This document shows positions 40,719-51,960 of a DNA stretch of 64,000 bases, one piece after another. Both the position numbers and the translations under genes were made by a program. The first letter of the stretch is position 1. Each line of letters opens with the position of its first letter. Source of the stretch: Candidatus Onthoplasma sp. (lineage in GTDB: Bacteria; Bacillota; Clostridia; Christensenellales; UBA1242); NCBI GenBank assembly GCA_965646995.1, contig CBFGBH010000001.1:16372-80371 (forward strand), read 5' to 3'. The notes beneath the pieces were generated by a model. That model was not told the DNA's origin and ran no database searches. It saw nothing but the letters and a program-made list of their open reading frames with translations.

Positions 40719-40746
40719 AAAAAGAGATGAATTCATCTCTTTTTTA
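40717..40746. terminator. bidirectional terminator
   Basis: Palindrome AGAGATGAATTCATCTCT flanked by A-run and T-run. Confidence 0.6.
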
Positions 40747-41721
40747 ATCACAACAGCAGGCTGGATGCGGATCATAATATTCAACATGTCTATTTATCTC
40801 TTCATCTAACATAGGTTTTAGAGCCTTATAGAAACTATCATCTTTTCTACTACCTAAAGCAAGTGCTAATATTTCTTTGGCTACGGCTTTGCTATTTGAT
40901 GTATATCGTATATCTTTTCTAATATTCTCAATATATTGTTCTTTGGTAGGTTTATAGAGTTCTTTTAATCTCTTATCGTCATTTTTAAGTGCATTCTTCA
41001 TCTCAATTAGTCTTACTCTATAATCTTCTACTCGAATAATTATATCTAATAGAATATTTGCCATATCTATAGATATTATATTTAAATTATAACTACAATT
41101 AATTGAGCTAAAGTTACCACTTTCTAACTGAATCAAAAATTTGCCAGTTTTAGTATAAATATCATATTTCTTATGTGGACACTGTACCACGATAATCTCT
41201 CCCATTGCCTGAAATAAATTGCCCATACAATACGAATATCCTTTATCAGAAGTATCGACTTTCGATGTATTAGTGTATTTAACCGGAACTATACACTCTC
41301 CGAATCTACCAATAATACCATACTCTCCATCAATACCTACCACCGCCAATCCATTATTAAAATCAGAAGCATAGTCATATATGGGTGGCACTACAACAAT
41401 GGCAGTCTCATCGATAAAGCCGAATTTACCAAAATTCTCTCTAAACTTCGTTCTTCCTTCGTGAGTTTCAAGGATTTTGCCTAGTACTAAGTGTTTATTT
41501 TTATTAAATGGAGTATTAAGCTCACGAGAATACACTTCGTAATTATATAGCTTATGCTCTTGGTCATATTTGTCCCAAGTATCAAGCTTTCTATAACTGC
41601 GAGTTAATTGAGTGAAAAATTCATCCGCCATTCTATCAAATTCATCTTTCTCACTTAGTACAGTGTGAACTGTCACTTCTTTTTTGTCATTTCTTTTAAT
41701 AGTTTTACCAAATAGTCCCAT
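40744..41721 (-). CDS. WG-repeat containing protein
   Basis: 325 aa. Motifs such as NNGLAVVGIDGEYGIIGRFGECIVPVKY resemble KWG/WG repeats. Ends with the unusual C-terminus HPACCCD. Confidence 0.5.
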   Translation of the reverse strand: MGLFGKTIKRNDKKEVTVHTVLSEKDEFDRMADEFFTQLTRSYRKLDTWDKYDQEHKLYNYEVYSRELNTPFNKNKHLVLGKILETHEGRTKFRENFGKFGFIDETAIVVVPPIYDYASDFNNGLAVVGIDGEYGIIGRFGECIVPVKYTNTSKVDTSDKGYSYCMGNLFQAMGEIIVVQCPHKKYDIYTKTGKFLIQLESGNFSSINCSYNLNIISIDMANILLDIIIRVEDYRVRLIEMKNALKNDDKRLKELYKPTKEQYIENIRKDIRYTSNSKAVAKEILALALGSRKDDSFYKALKPMLDEEINRHVEYYDPHPACCCD

Positions 41722-41802
41722 AATTGTCTCCTAATATGTCACATGATACCACAAATTTCACTCTTGTCAACCCCTCCCCCCTATACTTTTTTAATTTTTT
41801 GA

Positions 41803-41826
41803 TAAAAAAATGGCACTCTTGCCATT
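41803..41826 (-). terminator. terminator after the toxin/immunity-like pair
   Basis: Hairpin ATGGCA/TGCCAT followed by T7 on the minus strand. Confidence 0.55.
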
Positions 41827-41830
41827 ATTT

Positions 41831-42172
41831 TTAAGAATCATATTTATACGGAATTTTATTCTTTTTTTCTCCAAGTAAATTCATTATATACCCATCTTCC
41901 ACCTTGCACCACCAACGCGGGTCATTTTTTGGCAGGGCATCTAGAATCATATCATCTGTACAACCATATTCTTCCATTAATTCTATATCTTCTACTTCAA
42001 TGCAAGAATACTTATACCAATCATACTCATCCCCTGTCTCGAAAGCCACATAAAAACAATTATCCCTTATCTCTGCTTCCCATATAACTCCAATCTCGCC
42101 TAATGTAATTTTATCGCTTTTATATCTTTCTCTTAATTTAATTACCTTAACCTTATCTAAATATTTCATCAT
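41831..42172 (-). CDS. small acidic protein, immunity/antitoxin candidate (SH3-like, DUF4926-like N-terminus)
   Basis: 113 aa. Start ATG overlaps the stop of the upstream gene (ATGA). The N-terminal pattern VKVIKL...GEIGVIWEA...FYVAFETGD resembles DUF4926-type small domains. Confidence 0.35.
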   Translation of the reverse strand: MMKYLDKVKVIKLRERYKSDKITLGEIGVIWEAEIRDNCFYVAFETGDEYDWYKYSCIEVEDIELMEEYGCTDDMILDALPKNDPRWWCKVEDGYIMNLLGEKKNKIPYKYDS

Positions 42173-42795
42173 TTACCTCCGATTATTGTATTCAATTTGA
42201 GTTTCCCATTAGGAAATATAGTGTATGACCATGTGTTATATAAATGTCCTGAGTGTTCATTCTTGCCATGAATTGTTATAAATACATTAATTTTTAAACC
42301 ATATTTTGTATGATTTTCTATTTCATAATTACCATTTGCAAAAGATATTTTAACTAAACGCTTTATCATAGCAATAAATTCATCTTTATCTTCATCCCTA
42401 TATCCCCAGGAATAATACCAGTATAATTTACTCAAAAAGAAATATTGTATTTTCCCTTCAATAAAAATAAACTTTATTTCCTCTGGTTTAGGACTATTAA
42501 TCGCCAACTCCTTACAGTGACAATGAGGATGATATAATCCACTGATAAAATTCATAAAACTACTATTTTTGAATAATGAATAATCCATTCTTTCTGGTTT
42601 TTTGTGGGTTTCATTTTTAAAGTAGCAATGATTTACTGTCACACACTTCCAGCAATGTGGGTCAGTCACATCCTCGTCTACTCCCAAAGAATAAGGGAAA
42701 TCTTCTATCGTCCATGGAGAAATCTTATCTACCACTCTAATCCACTCACTGAAACTTGCTCTAATTAAATCTTGATACCCATCCAGTACACCCAT
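42169..42795 (-). CDS. MuF/SPP1-gp7-like zinc-ribbon protein with an uncharacterised C-terminal domain (toxin candidate)
   Basis: 208 aa. DPHCWKC ... YHPHCHC resembles the CxxC...HPxCxC signature of phage MuF-family domains, which often carry C-terminal toxin modules. Confidence 0.4.
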   Translation of the reverse strand: MGVLDGYQDLIRASFSEWIRVVDKISPWTIEDFPYSLGVDEDVTDPHCWKCVTVNHCYFKNETHKKPERMDYSLFKNSSFMNFISGLYHPHCHCKELAINSPKPEEIKFIFIEGKIQYFFLSKLYWYYSWGYRDEDKDEFIAMIKRLVKISFANGNYEIENHTKYGLKINVFITIHGKNEHSGHLYNTWSYTIFPNGKLKLNTIIGGK

Positions 42796-42881
42796 ATTAT
42801 ATCATATCTCCTTTGATTTTTATACTTTTTGAAGATATTGCATGATATTTCTATTTTTTATCTATAGGGTGTCAATGAAAC

Positions 42882-42906
42882 AAAAAAAGAGAGATAGTTC
42901 TCTCTT
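42882..42906 (-). terminator. terminator after the lipoprotein gene
   Basis: Hairpin AGAGAGA/TCTCTCT followed by a T-run on the minus strand. Confidence 0.55.
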
Positions 42907-42920
42907 CTTTTTTCTATTTA

Positions 42921-43826
42921 TTACTCCTGTGTAGGAATTTCACTTACTACATAATAAGTGGTCTCATCTACTGTCTCGGTTTTCACTTCATAACCTTCTG
43001 CTTTCTTATTAGCTAGAGTCTCGTCTGTGAATTTACCACCAGTGACTATAATATTTGCTGTAGCTAGGTCATTACCACTAGATGCACTCAACTCGCCATT
43101 GAATGTACCATTCTTGATATTAAGTACAGTCTTATCTTCCCAGTCAGCGAACTCTTTAGCTCTACTTGCTACACCATACTCGATTTTACCATCAACTACG
43201 CCAGTGAAGCTGTCATCAAATGTAACTGCCACACCATCATCGTATAGTCCGTCTTTATTCATGCCGTACCATAAGTCGAATGCTACCTGACCCTTAGCAG
43301 CGGTTAGATTAGTGTTGCCCTTAAGAGTAGCAGAGCCGAAATTATTACTCAGCACATAGGTACAAACTTCGCCTTCCTCTCCTATAGTAGTAGCGTCTAG
43401 ATTCATATTCTCTAGAGTAAGGTTGGCATAATTCTGGAGCATCATCCTGCACCCTTTCTCGCTCTGCTTAACTGTACCATTTTTAAGAGTCACAGTAGAA
43501 CCTTTTAAGAATTGGAATCCTAATGTCTCAGTACCGGTAGACCCTACCATACTACCATCTAGAGTATAAGTAAAACCGCCAAAATCAATAATTACATTTT
43601 GATTAGCTAGCACCTTCACTCCATTACCAGATAGATTCTGGTGTAATTTGACTATCCCACTATTACCGACAGCAGTCACAGCGGCATCAAGAGTATCGTA
43701 CCAAGTAGTCTTATTGCCTACTTCTACAGATACTTTACCCTGTGGCGTGGTCTCTCCACAAGCTGCAAACATGAAGGCACAGCACAAAACTAGCAATGCA
43801 CTTAAAGTCACTTTTAATGTTTTCAT
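42921..43826 (-). CDS. lipoprotein of unknown function
   Basis: Start moved to the AGGAGG-preceded ATG at 43826. Signal MKTLKVTLSALLVLCCAFMFAAC with lipobox. Gly/Thr/Asn-rich body. Confidence 0.6.
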   Translation of the reverse strand: MKTLKVTLSALLVLCCAFMFAACGETTPQGKVSVEVGNKTTWYDTLDAAVTAVGNSGIVKLHQNLSGNGVKVLANQNVIIDFGGFTYTLDGSMVGSTGTETLGFQFLKGSTVTLKNGTVKQSEKGCRMMLQNYANLTLENMNLDATTIGEEGEVCTYVLSNNFGSATLKGNTNLTAAKGQVAFDLWYGMNKDGLYDDGVAVTFDDSFTGVVDGKIEYGVASRAKEFADWEDKTVLNIKNGTFNGELSASSGNDLATANIIVTGGKFTDETLANKKAEGYEVKTETVDETTYYVVSEIPTQE

Positions 43827-44044
43827 TTTTCCTCCTATAATTTTAGAGTATAATAACATATTTGTTTTTTCTTCCATAATGAAAAGTATTCTATAATCGT
43901 AGCATTTTTTTAAATCAACTAGGAATATTGTCGAAGATTATCGAATGAATTATTTATACCGACTATATATAAATCTACAAAATGAATAATCTCATAGTTA
44001 AATAAACAAATACATAATTTAACTCTGATTACACATCATTATAT

Positions 44045-44077
44045 CAGGTTAAAAGACCTAAGTCAAGTCTTTTGACC
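44045..44077. promoter_or_regulatory. 12-bp imperfect inverted repeat upstream of the HTH gene (operator candidate)
   Basis: AGGTTAAAAGAC, 9 nt, GTCTTTTGACCT (one mismatch). Overlaps a TTGACC -35-like hexamer. Confidence 0.3.
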
Positions 44078-44101
44078 TAAAATGTAGTAAAAATTTATAT
44101 T

Positions 44102-44311
44102 ATGGAATTTATTAAAATAATTAAACAAATCATGTCAAACAACAACCTAAGTCAAGATGGCTTAGCTCGTATTATCGGAGTTAACCAGACCACTGTTAGC
44201 CAATGGCTACTGGGCAGGAAAAAACCAAGCTATGATAACATAATTTCGTTCTATGAAAAGTTTGGAGTGACCCCAAATGAGTTTTTCGGAATTGAGACAT
44301 TTATCGATTAA
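44102..44311 (+). CDS. XRE-family HTH transcriptional regulator
   Basis: 69 aa. LSQDGLARIIGVNQTTVSQWLLGRKKP is a classic HTH. Confidence 0.75.
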   Translation: MEFIKIIKQIMSNNNLSQDGLARIIGVNQTTVSQWLLGRKKPSYDNIISFYEKFGVTPNEFFGIETFID

Positions 44312-44334
44312 TCTCTCACACTATATTTTTAATA

Positions 44335-44363
44335 TTGACATATTCTTGAAAATATGATAATAT
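44335..44363 (+). promoter_or_regulatory. near-consensus sigma-A promoter driving the large ncRNA
   Basis: TTGACA, 17 nt, TAATAT with a TGa extended -10. Predicted TSS about 44370, immediately before the closing helix of the RNA. Confidence 0.6.
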
Positions 44364-44370
44364 ATTTATA

Positions 44371-44945
44371 TCACGAAGGTGCAGTATTCTAGTCAACTAG
44401 TGTGAATGAGGATGCCGAAATAAGCATCGATGGCACAACTATGAAGTTCGTGGTGCTGGCTTTGGTTGCCCAAACTGGGGCTGGTGCTGGGAGTTAAGAT
44501 TTTTGGGTAGCATATAACGGCATATATGCCCACACCCAATTATCGTGGAGACCCAACTGGGTAAAGACGATTTGATTACATATCTTATTTATCTCTTGGG
44601 CTAGAAACCTGCATGTGGCGAAAGCTATATGCAGTGTAGCCTGCTTTGAGTGGATATATTGGGATAGGGCGTCAACTGTCTCTCTTCAAAGTACACGAAG
44701 AGCGATAAGTTGCTCTTGAAATTATCTCCGCAAAATAAAGATAAATTTACACGATGTTGTTAAGGAAAACTTCTAGACTGTTCGTAAGAGATTCCTAAGG
44801 GATTATAGTGTGGTCTCAGTGGCGATTCGGTGCAAGTTCTGCGTGAAGGGAAACCGCTCGGCTGGTAACGGAAGAGTGCAGAATTGGGAAATCCAACCGA
44901 ACCTTATGCCGCAAGGTTTACTTTGGGAATTGCCTTCGTAAATTC
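44371..44945 (+). ncRNA. ole: large structured ncRNA of about 575 nt, best candidate OLE RNA
   Basis: No ORF of 60 aa or more in any frame and visibly higher GC than the flanks. Closing helix ACGAAGG (44373) pairs with CCTTCGT (44933). Many nested hairpins, including GCATATA/TATATGC, CTGCAT...GGC-GAAA-GCU...ATGCAG, GGCTA/TAGCC and AACCTT/AAGGTT. Followed on the same strand by a 4-TM gene of about 21 kDa, as expected for ole-oapA. Confidence 0.55.
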
Positions 44946-44996
44946 TAATTTAATAGGAATAAGACTATTGTTCTAATTCCTTTAATATAATCTAAT

Positions 44997-45563
44997 ATGA
45001 AAGAAAAAACTGAAAAGAATAAAAAACCTAAAACTCAAAAATCATGGGTATGGCCAGTGAAGATACTATTACTAGCCATATTTCTTTCTCTATCCTTTAG
45101 TATCATCAGTGAACTCGCGCTCGAGAATGCGAGCATAATTGTATCTGTCATAGTGATATTGACATTCATAAGCGTAAGTATACTCTTCGATATGCTAGGA
45201 CTCGCTGTAGCATCTAGTAGTCTGGAGAATTTCACTGCTATGGCATCTAGAAAAGTCAAAGGTAGCAAACAAGCTATTGCTCTGAATAAGAATGCAGACA
45301 AAGTCTCATCAATATGCGCTGATGTGATAGGCGATGTATGTGGAATTCTGTCTGGTGCAGCCGGTGCTAGCATACTCACTAAAATTGCACTTGCATCAAA
45401 TGGGGATTTCATTCAAATTCTGATAGCTTCATCTATATCAGCCGTGATTGCTGGACTCACGATATTTGGTAAAGCAAGTCTAAAACGCTATGCTATTAAA
45501 CATTCTAATGAAATCACATTGAAGTTCGCCAAATTTATCAATTTTTTCACTAGAAAAGATTAG
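44997..45563 (+). CDS. oapA: four-TM membrane protein, OLE-associated protein A candidate
   Basis: 188 aa with four predicted TM helices and a DVIGD (DxxxD) motif in TM3. Immediately downstream of the large ncRNA. TATAAT box 5 nt before the ATG and no SD. Confidence 0.45.
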   Translation: MKEKTEKNKKPKTQKSWVWPVKILLLAIFLSLSFSIISELALENASIIVSVIVILTFISVSILFDMLGLAVASSSLENFTAMASRKVKGSKQAIALNKNADKVSSICADVIGDVCGILSGAAGASILTKIALASNGDFIQILIASSISAVIAGLTIFGKASLKRYAIKHSNEITLKFAKFINFFTRKD

Positions 45564-45838
45564 ATGATTTTGTCTAATTCTTTATACCACATTTCGAGTT
45601 CTTGTCCAATACGAACACCTAGACTCAAAGCATATCCGCCCTTGATTCTCTCCTTCTCTTCATAAAATTCACGAAGATGAAATAGGTAAGAGTTAAGGGA
45701 TTTTTTCTGCTCAACATTAAGCATATTATATAAATGCTTTCGCGATCTCTGTATATCTAAATAAAATTCACTCTCTTCCTCTTTGAATTTAGGGAATTTG
45801 TGTAAAAATAATTGAATTATAGTATTTGGTATTTCCAT
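45560..45838 (-). CDS. small helical hypothetical protein
   Basis: 92 aa from the AAGGAG-preceded ATG at 45838. Divergent from the double-HTH gene. Confidence 0.45.
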   Translation of the reverse strand: MEIPNTIIQLFLHKFPKFKEEESEFYLDIQRSRKHLYNMLNVEQKKSLNSYLFHLREFYEEKERIKGGYALSLGVRIGQELEMWYKELDKII

Positions 45839-45939
45839 TTTTAGTCTCCTTGTACTTATTATATTAATCACTTTTCGACCTGTCAAGCAAAATCTAAATA
45901 TTAATCGTTTTTCAGCTTGTTGATTTTTTAGGTTGAAAA

Positions 45940-46386
45940 ATGATGTATATTATTAATATGAAAATATTTATTGATAGATTAAAATATCTCATGTCAGAAA
46001 ACCGCTTTACTAATGAAACTCTATCCAATAAACTTGGAGTATCTATTGGTACGATTAAGAGTTGGAAAGTTTCTCAATCTGTACCTATATTAAATACCGC
46101 TATCAAATTAGCCAACTTATTTGAATGTTCACTTGATTATTTATTTGGTAAAATAGATATTGAAAAATATGATAATTATGTCAATCCTCCACCATTCCAT
46201 ATTCAATTAAGAAGATTGATAGAAGAAAAAAATATAAGTCAATACAATCTGATTACCAACAAAATATGTAGTCCCGCAAATCTAACACGCTGGCTAAAAT
46301 ACCAAACCTCTCCCAATATGTCAAACGTAATTAAACTAGCTGATTATTTTAATCTAAGTCTTGACGAATTTGTTGGTAGAGTTTAA
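45940..46386 (+). CDS. tandem double XRE-type HTH regulator
   Basis: Two HTH units (NETLSNKLGVSIGTIKSWK and ISQYNLITNKICSPANLTRWLK). Likely start is ATG 45958, 6 nt after TG-TATATT. Confidence 0.7.
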   Translation: MMYIINMKIFIDRLKYLMSENRFTNETLSNKLGVSIGTIKSWKVSQSVPILNTAIKLANLFECSLDYLFGKIDIEKYDNYVNPPPFHIQLRRLIEEKNISQYNLITNKICSPANLTRWLKYQTSPNMSNVIKLADYFNLSLDEFVGRV

Positions 46387-46388
46387 AA
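46315..46388 (+). repeat. direct repeat copy A (3' end of the double-HTH gene)
   Basis: 74 nt, 68/74 identical to 47202..47275. Confidence 0.85.
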
Positions 46389-46414
46389 AAAGTAACTTGT
46401 TAGTTACCTTTTTT
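46385..46414. terminator. bidirectional terminator between the HTH gene and toxN
   Basis: Hairpin GTAAC/GTTAC flanked by A7 and T6. Overlaps the toxN stop codon. Confidence 0.5.
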
Positions 46415-46885
46415 ATTAAACAATTTTGATTTTTGTTCTAATAATGTATAGTTACAACATCTCTGTCTAACTTCTTGTCTCAATGTACCTTTATTATAAG
46501 AATTATATAGATTCGTTGCTCTATTCAAGATTTTTATCTCGTTGTCTTTAAAAAATATTGCTTGTTTTATTAAGAGCTGTCTATATTTTAAATTTTTCTC
46601 GTCAAGTATATTAAAATTAATAATACTATCTTTGACTACAGGTATCATATTATTAAAATTAATTACACCAAGTTTACCAGCATCGATCTTCATCATATCT
46701 TCTGAATTCTTCATCGTCAAATGCTTTTGTTTCGGACTAGACAAAGGAGCATAATATTTATGATTTTTCACTTTAAATAATATACCTATGTATGGGCGAG
46801 ACTCTCCCTTATTAAAACAAACTTTATTATCAAATTGCCTAAGATAATTGGTATATTTATCAGTAACATATACTATTTTAATCAT
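46400..46885 (-). CDS. toxN: type III toxin-antitoxin toxin, ToxN/AbiQ family endoribonuclease
   Basis: 161 aa from the AGGAGAG-preceded ATG at 46885. Collinear by eye with ToxN/AbiQ: KIVYVTDKYTNYLRQFDNKV, RPYIGILFKVKNHKYYAPLSSPKQKH, LGVINFNNMIPV, YRQLLIKQAIFFKDNEIKI, CNYTLLEQK. The track start at 46930 (GTG) lies inside the terminator hairpin. Confidence 0.88.
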   Translation of the reverse strand: MIKIVYVTDKYTNYLRQFDNKVCFNKGESRPYIGILFKVKNHKYYAPLSSPKQKHLTMKNSEDMMKIDAGKLGVINFNNMIPVVKDSIINFNILDEKNLKYRQLLIKQAIFFKDNEIKILNRATNLYNSYNKGTLRQEVRQRCCNYTLLEQKSKLFNKKGN

Positions 46886-46903
46886 ATCTCTCCTAATTAA
46901 AAA

Positions 46904-46930
46904 GTGGAAAGGAGCGATGCCCCTTTCCAC
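46904..46930 (-). terminator. intra-operon terminator between the antitoxin repeats and toxN
   Basis: 9-bp stem GTGGAAAGG/CCTTTCCAC followed by TTTTT on the minus strand, directly before the toxN RBS. Confidence 0.6.
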
Positions 46931-46940
46931 TACTTTTTTA

Positions 46941-47050
46941 TCCTTACTTCTAGGCTAAGGTTCTCCTGCTTTTTTCGTCCTTACTTTTATGGGCTAAGGT
47001 TCTCCTGCTTTTTTCGTCCTTACTTTTATGGGCTAAGGTTCTCCTGCTTT
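46941..47050 (-). ncRNA. toxI: type III antitoxin RNA: about 2.9 tandem repeats of 39 nt (ToxI/antiQ-like)
   Basis: Plus-strand units TCCTTACTT(CTAG/TTATGG)GCTAAGGTTCTCCTGCTTTTTTCG at 46941..46977, 46978..47016 and 47017..47050 (truncated). Transcribed sense carries an A6 tract per unit. Same strand as and upstream of toxN. Confidence 0.8.
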
Positions 47051-47103
47051 GGGCTCGAAGCCCTACACGGAATAAAAGGAGGTTATCACTTTTTTCCGTT
47101 ATT

Positions 47104-47132
47104 ATTTTATAGCATTATTATATAAAAGTCAA
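47104..47132 (-). promoter_or_regulatory. promoter of the toxI-toxN operon
   Basis: Minus-strand TTGACT, 17 nt, TAAAAT. Two small leader hairpins (47051..47063 and 47066..47098) follow before the repeats. Confidence 0.45.
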
Positions 47133-47201
47133 TATATTTTTCACAAATTATTAATAACGCTACAAAACATATTATTCCCCAATAGTTCAAAACTTTACTA
47201 A

Positions 47202-47273
47202 AATATGTCAAATGTGATAAAACTAGCTGATTATTTTAATCTAAGTCTTGACGAATTTGTAGGTCGTGTTTAA
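47202..47273 (+). pseudogene. orphan 3' fragment of an HTH gene (direct repeat copy B)
   Basis: Encodes NMSNVIKLADYFNLSLDEFVGRV plus stop, identical in protein to the end of the 45940..46386 product. Preceded by an in-frame TAA. The 6 nucleotide differences are all synonymous. Confidence 0.75.
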
Positions 47274-47286
47274 AACAAAAAGCACT

Positions 47287-47967
47287 CTATAATGAGTGTT
47301 TTTTATCATTCTTTTCTTTGAATAATTCTATTACTTGGTCTAGGCTATCATATTTTCTATATGCCATTTCTTTCACTTCATCGCTAGGCTCTTTAAGGTC
47401 GGGTATCAATATAGGTCTCACTCCTGCATGTAAAGCGGAGCGAATTCCATTATCTGAATCTTCTAGTGCTATCGCCTCGTCCGGTTTCACTCCCAGCACT
47501 TCGCAAGCTATCTGATATATTTGTGGGTCTGGCTTAGGACGCTCAACTTTATCTCCTCCTATTATAAAATCAAAATAATCAGTAGATAGTTTCGCCTGAC
47601 TAAATCGCTCTTCTATCCTATTCATAGCAGAAGAAGATGCTACTGCCAGTTTCACATCCTGTGTTTTTAAAAATTCCAGCAGTTCCATGAGTCCCTTTTT
47701 AATGCCTAGACCAATAGTCTCGACCTGCTCCTTCATGAATATCTTATTTAACCTTCTAAATTCAGCAGGGTCGAAATCATCTCCCATTGCTTCTTTTAGC
47801 ATTATATCTATCTTATCTTGACGATTACCCATACATTTGATAATCAATTCTGGTGGGACATTATAGCCATATACCTCGTTAGTTTTTATCACGCCATCGA
47901 GCCATAATTTCTCGGTATCAAACATAAGTCCATCCATATCGAATATAACTGCTTTTATTTCGTTCAT
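47287..47967 (-). CDS. HAD-superfamily hydrolase (beta-phosphoglucomutase-like subfamily IA)
   Basis: 226 aa. DxD motif VIFDMDGLMFDTE and C-terminal EDSDNG motif. Confidence 0.75.
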   Translation of the reverse strand: MNEIKAVIFDMDGLMFDTEKLWLDGVIKTNEVYGYNVPPELIIKCMGNRQDKIDIMLKEAMGDDFDPAEFRRLNKIFMKEQVETIGLGIKKGLMELLEFLKTQDVKLAVASSSAMNRIEERFSQAKLSTDYFDFIIGGDKVERPKPDPQIYQIACEVLGVKPDEAIALEDSDNGIRSALHAGVRPILIPDLKEPSDEVKEMAYRKYDSLDQVIELFKEKNDKKHSL

Positions 47968-49177
47968 TTACTCTCCTTTACTAATCGTCCATACTCTATT
48001 CGATTTAAACCAATCGGTATCTTTTAATTTTATAGTATTGTTTGAACAATTAATACCTACTTGTTCACTTGCCTTATAAGTCACTATCACAATATTTCCA
48101 TTCATGGAAGTAAATAGGTCTTTCTCCCAATCTACACACAGTGTAGTCACATAGATTTTGTCTGTGTACTTTGATACTCGGTCTATGAATTCTTGTGTCG
48201 GGAATTGATTGACCTTAGTCTTGGTATACTCAGGACTGCCGGCACAGCAACACACGCATACTACTTTGGGTTTGATTACACTGAGTAGTTCATCTGTAGA
48301 CGATGTCTTACTACCATGATGACCTGCTTTATATAGGTCAATTTCTGGCAAAGCATTATTCTCGACTAACATTTGCTCTCCACTATCTTCCAAGTCGCCT
48401 GTGAATAGGTAATGTTTGTCCCCATATGTAAGTAGTATACATACCGAATAGTTATTCTCTGTACTCGCCTTATGAGTAGTATCAGTTAGCTCTCTATCAT
48501 ATTCTGAATAATAATTATATAAAATCTCGAACTTAAGTTCATTCGTCTCATCTAGTATAAATTCACGGCTCGCTCCATTCGTATTATTATAACAATCAAT
48601 AGCCGAGTAATGCACTGCTTCCCCGATCTATCTCTTCATTCAATTCTCTAAGGTAATTATTATACATAGTAGCAGTAGCTTTTTGGTTAGTAGCTGAGCC
48701 AAAATCTATTATAGTCTCGCATTCATATATATCAAATATACTTTTCACTTTGCTAGTCGTAGCAAAGCCTGCATAATGGTCTTGGTGTGCATGTGTAACT
48801 ATGACATATTCGAGCGTATTATCTGTCATATATTTATTGAGATAAGATGACACTGTCGCTATGCTATTTGACTTTGAGCCACAGTCGATTAGTATATCAA
48901 TATCTCCATATTTTATATAAGTACAATCGCCAGTATATTTATTGCCCAGTTCTAAGAAATGTATAGATAATTCGTCACTTGCACCTGTGAGCTGTACGCT
49001 CGAGATATCTTCCGTATCTGAATATGAATAGTAGATCTCTTCTCCTATGGTCAATATCTCGGTAGGTGGTAGGGTCGCATAGGTGTAACCAACTACACCT
49101 CCTGCAAAACCTATAATTAAACCTATTATGCAGATAATGAACGATACGAGCGGATTTGATTTTTTTCTTTTAGACAT
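47968..49177 (-). pseudogene. membrane-anchored MBL-fold (ComEC C-terminal-like) hydrolase, split by a frameshift
   Basis: N-terminal half (ORF 48596..49231, real start ATG 49177) has a TM anchor and HAHQDH. C-terminal half (47968..48615) has FTGDLE and AGHHGS. The halves overlap in different frames, and removing one G from the G4 run at 48621..48624 restores a single ORF. Confidence 0.65.
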
Positions 49178-49688
49178 TTTCTCCTCCTTGTGATTCATTA
49201 GGTAGCATTTCTTCACTCTCGCTCGGCTCAACGAATGTGATTAATCGTATCTTCTGTACCTTAAATATGCTACCATATTTGAGACAATTCACTTTATATA
49301 CGATATAGAATGTACCTATCTCGTCTGACGAAAACTCGCCATTCGCACCACGATTAAGGTTGGTATCAATCTCCACTTTCGCACTCATATCACGACCAAA
49401 TGAGACTACCGCCACTCCTTCGTTTAAATAGGATTCGCCAAGCGTCAAAGTTATCTCGTCACGACCGATTATCTCAAACTTATCATTTCGTGATAAATAC
49501 CAGCACAACCCTACACCTATCAATGCTCCTAAAAGTACCAAAACTAATAATGCTATCAATACATTTTTATTAGTGTGTTTTAATGTCTTTTCTACTTGCT
49601 TGCCGGTCTTTTTAGTTGATTTACTATCGAATCTGATATTTAGACCTGCTCTAGCACTCGTCTTGCTCGCTGATTTTCTAGTCGCCAT
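49170..49688 (-). CDS. membrane-anchored protein with an Ig-like (DUF5011-like) ectodomain
   Basis: 172 aa. Basic N-terminus, one TM helix, then a pattern GESYLNEGVAVVSFGRD...IGTFYIVYKV reminiscent of DUF5011. Confidence 0.4.
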   Translation of the reverse strand: MATRKSASKTSARAGLNIRFDSKSTKKTGKQVEKTLKHTNKNVLIALLVLVLLGALIGVGLCWYLSRNDKFEIIGRDEITLTLGESYLNEGVAVVSFGRDMSAKVEIDTNLNRGANGEFSSDEIGTFYIVYKVNCLKYGSIFKVQKIRLITFVEPSESEEMLPNESQGGENV

Positions 49689-49697
49689 ATACTCTCC

Positions 49698-50216
49698 TTA
49701 AATATTCTTTGCATAATAATTGACCACTATCTCGACCGGTTTAGTTTCGCCCGCTCGTAACGGCTCGTACTCGATAGCTGTTTTTACATAGTCCATGAAA
49801 CCATAATGAAAATATATCATAATATTTTTCGGCTCGCTCGGCTCTACGCCCAAAGTCAATCTAGTGTAGCCACGCTTCTTCATATCATTCTCAAGGAAGT
49901 TATATAACTTAGAAAAATAGCCCTTGCCTTGATACTTCTCTATCGTACGGAATGCAAACAGATATGCAGCCTTTTCATCTACGAGACCATCACTATTCTG
50001 ACACGCATCTTTTGATAACGCTACACATGCCTCCGTGATAATCTCGCCATCTAATATTCCTATATATGTAATTCGTTTCTTCTCTTTGAAGAATTTAACT
50101 GCTTCTGTCTTCCACTCAACCCATGCGCTGTCATTAGGATGCTTTTTTATCTCGTAATCAAATTTTTTCTTAATCTCATCTAGTGTTGCCACTTTGCAAA
50201 CAAAATCTTTTTTCAT
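49698..50216 (-). CDS. GNAT family N-acetyltransferase
   Basis: 172 aa. FRTIEKYQGKGYFSKLYNFLENDMKKRGYTRLTLGVE resembles the acetyl-CoA binding core. Confidence 0.65.
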   Translation of the reverse strand: MKKDFVCKVATLDEIKKKFDYEIKKHPNDSAWVEWKTEAVKFFKEKKRITYIGILDGEIITEACVALSKDACQNSDGLVDEKAAYLFAFRTIEKYQGKGYFSKLYNFLENDMKKRGYTRLTLGVEPSEPKNIMIYFHYGFMDYVKTAIEYEPLRAGETKPVEIVVNYYAKNI

Positions 50217-50292
50217 TTCTTAACTCCAAAAATATTGTATCATATATAATTTTAATCTCCAACAGAACTAATATAAAAAATAAAAAACGAGA

Positions 50293-51960
50293 TTAGTACT
50301 CGTTTTTTATTTTCTTAATTAAATTATTTAGTCTACTTTTGCACTCTTTTTCGCCTAGAATACACATTATTGAGTACAAATCTGGGCTATTCACTTTGCC
50401 TGTTATTGCTAGACGGACAAACTTCGATGCGTCTGTGATATTGCCAGCATATTGGGTCGGATTCTGTTTATAGGTCTTATTATCTGTGAAATTATGCTTG
50501 AATGCCACTTCTTTCAGATTTTCAAACCATGTGCTATTATCTTGAGCTTCAATATAGTTATTATTATAATCTTGTAAAAACTCTATAAGTAACTGCTTAT
50601 CCACAGCACCTAATTCTATGTCATAATTAGGTGCGAAAGCTGGCAGTACATAGTCGTATAATGAAAGTATATCACTATACATAGTAATGTCTTTTCGAGG
50701 TCGGTCTCCTCCGCGGTCGATTGAGAATATTTGAAGTAAAACCGCTTTATTAGCTTTTAATACTTTCTCCACATCTTTATTCCACTCACTCGCCCAAGCG
50801 ACAGCTTTATCATAAACCTCATCTGCTGTGTATCGTGAAATAATCGTTTTCGATATATCGTTAAGTTTCATGAAATCAAACATTGGATTCGTGACACCTA
50901 TCTTCTTTAGCGAGAATGGGAACTCGGTGTAGTGGAGAGTTGGATTATTCTTTCTCCACAATTCGAAATCACTATTAAGTAGATTGAGTAAATATTCAAT
51001 TACCGCCTCTACTGGATAGCCCTGTCTTAAGAAAAATCTAGCGTCTGCAAAAGTATCTTTTCGTTTACTAATTTTACGCTTATGTCCATTCTCGTCCAGT
51101 ACACAGATATTAGGAGTATGTGCATATCTAAATGGGGCACGACCGAATGCTCGAGCCAGTTCTAAGTGAACAGGTAGCGACTGATACCAATCCTGTCCAC
51201 GCACGATGACGGTCGTTCCCATTAGCATATCATCCACAATATGTGCGAACGAATACACTGGTACACCATTTGATTTAATAAGCACATCGTCCTTTGCATT
51301 CTCTCGAATCTCTTTCTTACCCATTATCTCATCAGTATATGGGTGTGTCTTACTGCTATCTCCCATAGAGCGAAGTCTGAGCGCAAAGGTCTTGCCTTCT
51401 TTAATATTCTTCTCTATCTCTTCATATGTTAAATCTCTACATGGGTCTTTTACTTCTAGTTCGGAGTTTTCATTCAACTCTTCTTCTCGTCTTTTCAATA
51501 CATCCGCCTTACCAGTCGTGGCAGTACAAAAACATGGGAATGCTCTCCCCCTCTTCACCAATTCATGAGCGAACGCTCGATATATTTCTACTCTCTCGCT
51601 CTGCTTGTATGGACCATAGTCCCCTGACTGCGATAATTTATCTCCACGATAACCTTCGTCTGGAGTTAGCCCAAAACGAACGAGTGAATTGTATCCAATC
51701 TCTCCAGCCTCGTCAACTTCACGCTTATTGTCAGTATCTTCCGAACGCATATAAAATACGCCATCGTTTTCTCTCGCTGTCAGCCTATCGCACAAAGCTT
51801 GATATACTGTGCCTATGTGAAGATAACCTGTAGGACTAGGCGCTACACGAGTCACTTCTCCTTTGGTCTGGCGTGATGGATATTTATTAATATAAAAACT
51901 TGCATCCAAAGCATTTGGATACAATAAATCTGCTAATTTAGTTAATTCTAATTCAGTCAT
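50293..51960 (-). CDS. gltX: glutamate--tRNA ligase
   Basis: 555 aa. HIGH-type motif PSPTGYLHIGT and KMSKS-type KISKRK. Confidence 0.88.
   Translation of the reverse strand: MTELELTKLADLLYPNALDASFYINKYPSRQTKGEVTRVAPSPTGYLHIGTVYQALCDRLTARENDGVFYMRSEDTDNKREVDEAGEIGYNSLVRFGLTPDEGYRGDKLSQSGDYGPYKQSERVEIYRAFAHELVKRGRAFPCFCTATTGKADVLKRREEELNENSELEVKDPCRDLTYEEIEKNIKEGKTFALRLRSMGDSSKTHPYTDEIMGKKEIRENAKDDVLIKSNGVPVYSFAHIVDDMLMGTTVIVRGQDWYQSLPVHLELARAFGRAPFRYAHTPNICVLDENGHKRKISKRKDTFADARFFLRQGYPVEAVIEYLLNLLNSDFELWRKNNPTLHYTEFPFSLKKIGVTNPMFDFMKLNDISKTIISRYTADEVYDKAVAWASEWNKDVEKVLKANKAVLLQIFSIDRGGDRPRKDITMYSDILSLYDYVLPAFAPNYDIELGAVDKQLLIEFLQDYNNNYIEAQDNSTWFENLKEVAFKHNFTDNKTYKQNPTQYAGNITDASKFVRLAITGKVNSPDLYSIMCILGEKECKSRLNNLIKKIKNEY

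Follow-up and report, generated by a model that had tools for sequence, protein, structure and literature searches.

A toxIN unit between two copies of a regulator gene's 3' end in Candidatus Onthoplasma: a probable small insertion and its possible origin

The routes by which single defence systems pass from one genome to another are under active study, and most of their known vehicles are large: prophages, integrative and conjugative elements (ICEs), satellites and islands. The locus described here raises the matter for a unit of less than one kilobase. We analysed 64,000 nucleotides from Candidatus Onthoplasma sp. (Bacteria; Bacillota; Clostridia; Christensenellales; UBA1242; assembly GCA_965646995.1, contig CBFGBH010000001.1, positions 16,372 to 80,371 of the forward strand), a stretch that we call "the window" and number from its first nucleotide. 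In it, a predicted type III toxin-antitoxin unit, toxIN, lies between two copies of the last 24 codons of a double helix-turn-helix (HTH) gene. An earlier note, made by a model that saw only the letters and a list of open reading frames (ORFs), had proposed that the unit is a cassette moving between orthologous HTH genes. We ask how the cassette came to lie where it does, what it carries, and whether it has travelled elsewhere.

The duplicated gene tail and the empty site

The duplication reported in the earlier note was borne out by a direct recount: copy 1 (46315-46388) and copy 2 (47202-47275) share 68 of their 74 nucleotides. Their six mismatches fall in five codons (AAC/AAT, GTA/GTG, ATT/ATA, GTT/GTA, AGA/CGT) and are all synonymous, and the translation of either copy is NMSNVIKLADYFNLSLDEFVGRV followed by a stop. 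A repeat search stretches the pair to 77 nt at 91% identity and identifies it as the sole long dispersed direct repeat within the window. At the centre is a 41-nt core, identical in both copies, for which exactly two occurrences were observed and 0 were expected. The HTH gene is intact and takes its working stop codon from copy 1. Copy 2 follows an in-frame TAA and precedes a terminator-like hairpin that it shares with the convergent HAD gene, as previously described; this orphan tail is recognised by a hidden Markov model (HMM) of the HTH family at E=4e-9. Coordinates of these and other features are collected in Table 1.

Simulations on the actual codons showed how unusual the pattern of differences is. 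Six random substitutions over these 23 codons would all be synonymous with P=5e-5 under a uniform model and P=3e-4 under a transition-biased one; for just the three left-hand differences the figure is P=0.008-0.02, and the run of 13 codons without differences in the core has P=0.02. The synonymous-only divergence is significant, which indicates that both tails evolved as coding sequence in different lineages, a claim of the earlier note that thereby stands, and that the foreign tail allele was shaped by coding constraint. The same numbers bear on the simplest conceivable history, in which the tail was duplicated in tandem in situ and an unrelated toxIN was inserted afterwards, or the similarity arose by chance. 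Beyond the existence of a direct repeat nothing favours such a history: an untranslated copy would drift randomly, and six synonymous differences out of six have P<=3e-4; chance would yield 0 matches to the core; and the reciprocal chimera seen against the empty allele, described below, would be left unexplained. We consider this history effectively refuted.

The species is represented in the collections by two genomes, one filled (the window) and one empty (L001, a contig from another sequencing run), and exact-protein look-ups of four window proteins matched L001 alone or nothing. L001 encodes an identical 148-aa HTH protein, and its HAD gene lies 14 nt past the HTH stop, the same spacing as that between copy 2 and the HAD gene in the window; the terminator-like hairpin is also found at the same spacing. 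The empty site that the earlier note had suggested looking for, a single HTH tail directly before the HAD gene, is therefore present in a near-identical strain. By blastn, L001 1-5321 corresponds to window 41076-46391 and L001 5244-8337 to window 47202-50297, and the two sequences differ at this site by exactly one repeat unit plus the cassette, or 887 bp. The cassette is a real insertion/deletion polymorphism.

The single tail of L001 is chimeric with respect to the two copies in the window. Its left-hand variants (AAC GTA ATT) are those of copy 1 and its right-hand variants (GTA GGT CGT) are those of copy 2, which makes both copies hybrids, like attL and attR. Outside the repeats, the window and L001 differ at 2 positions over 2.6 kb on the left side and at none over the first ~140 nt on the right; with outer flanks so nearly identical, foreign variants occur only in those halves of the repeats that face the cassette. 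From the sequences compared, the cassette-facing halves (GTT GGT AGA by toxN; AAT GTG ATA by the promoter) read as a foreign allele of the same tail, and the outer halves as the resident allele. The element allele of the tail is AATATGTCAAATGTGATAAAACTAGC...GAATTTGTTGGTAGAGTTTAA, and the junction reads CAAAACTTTACTAAAATATGTCAAATGTG. Two earlier statements can be refined from this comparison. Copy 2 had been taken for the original gene end, which is correct to the right of the 41-nt core; its left part is of the element type when set against the L001 allele. The toxIN module had been placed exactly between the copies, and the 815 nt between them do hold a complete toxIN, but the mobile unit would be 887 bp, one tail included.

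Table 1. Features of the toxIN cassette and its insertion site (window coordinates)
Feature	Position	Strand	Basis or remark
HTH gene, 148-aa double helix-turn-helix (XRE-type) regulator, target	45940..46386	+	Pfam HTH_3/HTH_19/HTH_26, two domains
Repeat copy 1, attL-like hybrid	46315..46391	+	Left variants host-type AAC GTA ATT, right variants element-type GTT GGT AGA
41-nt core of copy 1	46333..46373	+	Identical to core of copy 2
Weak hairpin GTAACT-TGTT-AGTTAC between A-run and T-run	46392..46407		Read from sequence; overlaps toxN stop
toxN, 161-aa ToxN/AbiQ-family endoribonuclease toxin (predicted)	46400..46885	-	PF13958 and PDB matches
Terminator hairpin between toxI and toxN, 13 pairs then T-run	46903..46931	-	Terminator scan
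toxI antitoxin RNA array (predicted) with short 5' hairpin GGGCTTCGAGCCC	46933..47064	-	Tandem repeats
Promoter-like site for toxIN, TTGACT-17 nt-TAAAAT	47104..47132	-	Consensus match only
Repeat copy 2, attR-like hybrid, orphan 24-codon tail	47202..47278	+	Left variants element-type AAT GTG ATA, right variants host-type GTA GGT CGT
41-nt core of copy 2	47220..47260	+	Identical to core of copy 1
Terminator-like hairpin	47277-47304		Overlaps stop of convergent HAD gene; common to original HTH gene end and HAD gene
HAD-family hydrolase gene, right neighbour in filled and empty state	47287..47967	-	PF13419 E=6e-34

The comparison with L001 also bears on whether the filled form could be an artefact, in which an empty chromosome and a separate tail-toxIN-tail molecule were threaded through the 41-nt core by an assembler working at k<43. 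In favour of this account, the core is a perfect repeat node and the source contig (215 kb) is metagenome-like. Common assemblers, however, end at k>=55, a length that spans the core together with variants on both sides. A replication-less 887-bp circle could exist only as the excision product of an integrated form, which amounts to the same biology. L001 comes from Logan, whose contigs are assembled at k=31, and it runs unbroken through the core, which makes the empty form genuine in that contig. An artefact is in our judgement very improbable.

Neither does import of a ready-made arrangement explain much. A cassette already flanked by both repeats may have entered from a diverged strain by a double crossover through the flanks, by transformation or transduction, and the mosaic pattern of differences from L001 (HAD gene, 14 over 520 nt; left of the cassette, 2 over 2.6 kb) may reflect donor DNA imported with it. 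However, the sequence just outside the repeats is that of L001, which would force both crossovers into the 41-nt cores, and the origin of the arrangement would merely be shifted to another strain in which a Campbell-type event was still needed. We hold such an import to be improbable.

The cargo and its relatives

The interval 46387-47201, 815 nt long, is taken up by a single type III toxin-antitoxin unit, complete and encoded on the minus strand. The ORF list and Pfam reveal no gene in it other than toxN, in agreement with the earlier statement that no recombinase is encoded within. The toxN product matches PF13958 at E=4.3e-44 over profile positions 2-157 of 159, and its matches in the PDB are ToxN 4ATO (E=1e-22), ToxN 2XD0 (E=2e-20) and AbiQ 4GLK (E=6e-11). 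Upstream of it, the toxI tandem repeat (46933-47050) has a period of 39 nt, 3.1 copies and 93% matches (TRF). No Rfam family matches toxI; its units are homologous to units upstream of ToxN relatives in loci L002, L003 and L114, in which the terminator hairpin between toxI and toxN also has a counterpart. Similar TTGAC-type promoters precede the toxI arrays of L078 and L114. The weak hairpin that overlaps the toxN stop is a possible bidirectional terminator, with a score below the threshold of the terminator scan. Type III loci are described as having tandem RNA repeats upstream of the toxin, a terminator between the two and a promoter upstream (Blower et al., PMC3401426), and the cassette has every one of these features, the terminator and the promoter as consensus matches only. 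By every sequence criterion the cargo belongs to the ToxIN family and, by family, would be a phage-defence unit made of an RNA antitoxin and a toxin.

Among 5.8 billion proteins, the nearest ToxN relatives are 71%, 67% and 55% identical. Of the eight ToxN loci with at least 54% identity, four (those of the window, L002, L003-5 and L114) have an XRE-type HTH gene tail-to-tail after toxN, in unrelated contexts, and this association in the clade makes a donor order of "double-HTH gene, then convergent toxIN" plausible. The adjoining genes are small, one or two in number (L002 761-1057, L003 2115-2315, L114 2403-2900), and the loci lie upstream of rpsL/rpsG, after tuf and after recO. No orphan tail is present at L003-5 or L114, and L002 ends before the point where one would sit. 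An HTH gene as a universal partner of the ToxN family was considered and rejected: among ~80 loci at 41-55% identity, L058 alone has a convergent HTH gene and three have one on the same strand. In L003, three ~90-nt units, each with a terminator-like hairpin, occupy positions 967-1216, past the end of tuf and ahead of the toxIN promoter.

One relative shows this kind of cargo on a larger vehicle. In L113 (1106-4582) a toxIN with a 55%-identical ToxN lies between a cI-like repressor (HTH_3 and Peptidase_S24 domains) and a tyrosine integrase (Arm-DNA-bind_4 and Phage_integrase), as an additional gene at the end of a prophage-like lysogeny module, beside the att end. This arrangement indicates that toxIN units of the clade do travel beside int and att on integrase-bearing elements.

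The target gene and the proposed mechanism of insertion

The target gene belongs to a double-HTH family of at least 706 proteins of ~140-150 aa, found mostly in Clostridia-like metagenome bins, and it sits stably in the chromosome, outside any mobile element. The best-conserved part of the family is its last ~24 residues, PNMSNVIKLADYFNLS[LI]DEFVGR, which are retained in orthologues at 56% and 45% overall identity, and the start of the duplication coincides with the start of this C-terminal block. The 56% orthologue (L006-L008, labelled uncultured Christensenellaceae) keeps the upstream synteny, including OLE RNA; the genes downstream differ, and there is no duplication. In L001, L006 and L101-L112, as in the window, the double-HTH gene always stands beside a divergent gene of 85-120 aa without a Pfam match (92 aa in the window, 45560-45838, minus strand). 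The pairing holds whatever the neighbours (spoIIE, tilS, pheT, OLE), and the two look like a conserved two-gene unit in Clostridia-like genomes.

In the Campbell model, tyrosine-integrase prophages and islands enter the 3' ends of tRNA, tmRNA and protein genes and bring a replacement end with them. The hybrid tails suggest an event of this form. An 887-bp circle would have consisted of the toxIN promoter, a toxI array of 3.1 x 39 nt, the terminator, toxN and one 74-nt HTH tail as an attP-like site. A single Campbell-type crossover within the 41 nt that are identical in element and chromosome would then have produced the two hybrid repeats: copy 1, with its left part from the host and its right part from the element, would keep the gene intact and its protein unchanged, and copy 2, with its left part from the element and its right part from the host, would remain as an orphan tail. 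That the cassette was inserted by a reciprocal crossover we regard as highly likely.

Our preferred account goes further and treats the cassette as a small non-autonomous integrative toxIN element in the 3' end of the HTH gene, comparable to the remnants known as cis-mobilizable elements (CIMEs). The ancestor would have been a prophage or an integrative and mobilizable element (IME) with an integrase, a toxIN near one end and the HTH tail as attachment site, and reduction may have left toxIN with two att-like repeats. An addictive, defensive toxIN is the cargo likeliest to outlast the decay of an element, and may have been retained for those properties. Loss or regain would now depend entirely on help in trans: host homologous recombination between the 74-nt repeats, homology in the flanks, or a related integrase. 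A gene 3' end that is replaced exactly, where the gene is best conserved, with an 18-nt extension of the repeat on the 5' side of the core and a long one to the stop codon, is the classic signature of an integrase; integrase targets are usually conserved, and the HTH tail is the most conserved segment of a widespread family. Taken as a whole, we regard this account as an even call, and hold its specific element, an integrase or CIME-like origin, a shade more tentatively.

Several observations weigh against it. A Pfam scan of 18 window ORFs revealed no integrase, and no integrase element was found at this site in L001, L006-8, L101-112 or the viral, plasmid and phage collections, with the lineage very thinly sampled. 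The cassette contains no remnants of other element genes. Folding gave no evident recombinase-type inverted repeats or hairpin in the tail repeat: the z-scores for both strands of both copies are -1.2, -1.95, +0.8 and +0.4, and inspection by eye found trivial 5-bp inverted repeats only. The spacing (13 nt from the HTH stop to the toxN stop, ~70 nt from the -35 hexamer to copy 2) leaves little room for lambda-like arm-type sites. The integrated form is known from one assembly, and the comparison comprises a single filled and a single empty genome; because an insertion leaves the same alleles as a precise deletion between the repeats, either polarity would fit. Finally, flank-against-flank blastn at 95 other ToxN loci (93 plus L113 and L114), about 10 of which have flanks too short for comparison, revealed no second gene-tail bracket, with matches such as those in L017, L031 and L063 not inspected one by one.

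Some of these points are accounted for more simply if RecA alone carried out the Campbell insertion. A donor's last 74 nt of its own double-HTH gene, together with the toxIN downstream, would have been circularised, or carried on a circular replicon, and crossed in at the 41-nt stretch without a site-specific recombinase, with loss through the repeats. Such an event needs no lost genes, no integrase and no space for att arms. Both halves of the tail, including the never-translated left half, differ only synonymously, as if they came from another lineage's gene end, and this is the simplest account of that pattern; the homology ends 2-5 nt past the stop, where toxN starts, and toxIN lies downstream of a convergent XRE gene in L002, L003-5 and L114. 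A perfect block of 41 nt within 74 is close to the minimum for RecA recombination. However, an 887-bp circle without replication or transfer functions has no credible vehicle, natural transformation would linearise it, and no actual gene with the donor allele was found. The classic integrase signature speaks against RecA as well, and the left and right extensions around the core fit att sites of integrases; an enzyme of that kind reading only the invariant positions of a coding target could also produce the synonymous-only pattern. On balance we judge insertion by RecA somewhat unlikely.

Movement on a wider scale has less to recommend it. In principle, toxIN units of this clade could be sub-kilobase, recombinase-less defence cassettes that use a portable XRE-gene tail as a handle and hop repeatedly into XRE-family 3' ends while restoring the gene, by host recombination or with a borrowed integrase. 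Repeated hopping of this kind would explain why four of the eight closest loci have a tail-to-tail XRE gene. The family HMM, applied to six-frame translations, found no orphan HTH tail at 94 ToxN loci and detected the window orphan as a positive control. Fifteen other HTH-family loci (L006-8, L101-112) have neither a duplicated tail nor a ToxN, and the genes downstream are pheT, tilS, an XRE gene and unknowns. A degenerate pattern of the tail was not found in viral contigs, and an alignment of the double-HTH family retrieved only generic XRE genes from them. With blastn, the cassette DNA had no match in the plasmid collection and a single 159-nt match at 72% in the phage collection, so that no relative of the cassette turned up in either. 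With no second bracket at the 95 ToxN loci, at the 15 HTH loci or in the plasmid, phage and viral collections, the repeated movement between orthologous HTH genes proposed in the earlier note is not supported, and we think a family of hopping cassettes with XRE-tail handles quite unlikely. The further idea of a hotspot for defence cassettes fared no better: no other cargo occurs at the 15 HTH-family loci, and only two genomes of the species were available.

Two similar-looking arrangements were examined and set aside. Bracketing repeats in L077, L078 and L097 proved to be tandem toxIN promoters and toxI arrays, not gene tails: a second promoter and array follows the ToxN locus (L077 3744-4596, L078 105-1006, L097 3206-4067), and flanking repeats of this type mimic insertion brackets. 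The XRE gene that follows the double-HTH gene in L102 was considered as a recent duplicate and rejected, being a 37%-identical paralogue.

Other features of the region were recorded in the course of the comparison. The window has a G+C content of 34%. Upstream of the locus is a full-length OLE (ornate large extremophilic) RNA (44360-44952, plus strand; RF01071, 361 bits, E=1e-102), preceded by a 69-aa HTH gene (44102-44311) and followed by an oapA-like gene for a 188-aa membrane protein (44997-45563), in the same order as in L006/L007. Divergence between the window and L001 is very uneven, which suggests recombination patches or diversifying selection: the patch in the HAD gene (14 differences in 520 nt, 47401-47914) is 2.7% divergent, and a WG_beta_rep surface-protein gene (40744-41721) has 119 differences in 500 nt (41250-41750). 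The metallo-beta-lactamase-fold gene (47968-49231, minus strand) is one 402-aa ORF in L001 and two overlapping ORFs (215 and 211 aa) in the window, split by an extra T at 48619 that represents either a real frameshift pseudogene or a sequencing error.

Comparison with known systems

Gene 3' ends are known to harbour CIMEs (1.2-13 kb) and microCIMEs without genes (130-220 bp), both with att repeats on either side; in streptococci such elements lie at the 3' ends of fda, rpsI, rpmG and tRNA-Lys (PMC7563491). The toxIN element, at 0.9 kb, falls between microCIMEs and classical CIMEs in size. Like them it is bounded by att-type direct repeats that take in a conserved gene's 3' end, consists of cargo only and needs outside help for loss or movement; only toxN lies between the repeats, with no genes for integrase, relaxase, coupling protein or type IV secretion system. 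In contrast to them, no ICE or IME is known for this site, and there is neither tandem accretion nor any decayed element gene; the gene targeted encodes a double-HTH regulator in a sparsely sampled lineage of Clostridia, and the cargo is a single type III unit. By analogy, the element would act like a CIME or an integrase-type island with a replacement gene end, and its derivation from an ICE or IME is inferred only, for which reason we do not classify it as a CIME.

The likeness to integrated prophages and islands lies in the hybrid attL and attR, the unchanged product of the target gene, the orphan original end at the far side and the block of identity from the crossover to the gene end. The element differs in being smaller than 1 kb, in lacking integrase and excisionase and in offering scant room for arm sites. 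An autonomous prophage or integrative island was rejected, because the 815 nt between the repeats are toxIN only and encode no integrase.

Recombinase-less cassettes that are moved in trans include integron gene cassettes, with their attC sites, and Xer-dependent dif/pdif modules. These too are small, often carry a single function, toxin-antitoxin units among them, have no recombinase of their own and are bounded by recombination sites. Here, however, the repeats at either end are a coding part of the target gene, and no dif-like 28-bp site was seen by eye. An integron gene cassette was likewise rejected, because no attC-like hairpin or cassette array is present and the ORFs tested include no integrase.

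As cargo, the unit resembles the ToxIN systems of Pectobacterium atrosepticum pECA1039 and Bacillus thuringiensis and AbiQ of Lactococcus lactis in its promoter, repeat array, terminator hairpin and ToxN-family gene; the repeat of the prototype is 36 nt x 5.5, compared with 39 nt x 3.1 here (PMC3401426). It differs in being chromosomal and bracketed by a duplicated gene tail, a setting not described for toxIN in the literature that we examined.

The single insertion found is a clear case of a known process; it is neither a new class of mobile element nor a new principle. Its value lies in the scale and completeness of the example: a complete toxIN is the sole cargo of an 887-bp element, with a crossover placed within 41 nt, a matching empty site and an end that restores the gene. 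It suggests that a defence module can persist, and be cleanly gained or lost, as a minimal att-flanked cassette without a recombinase of its own. If more cases are found, gene-tail duplications could serve as a signature in searches for very small defence cassettes that escape island-finding tools.

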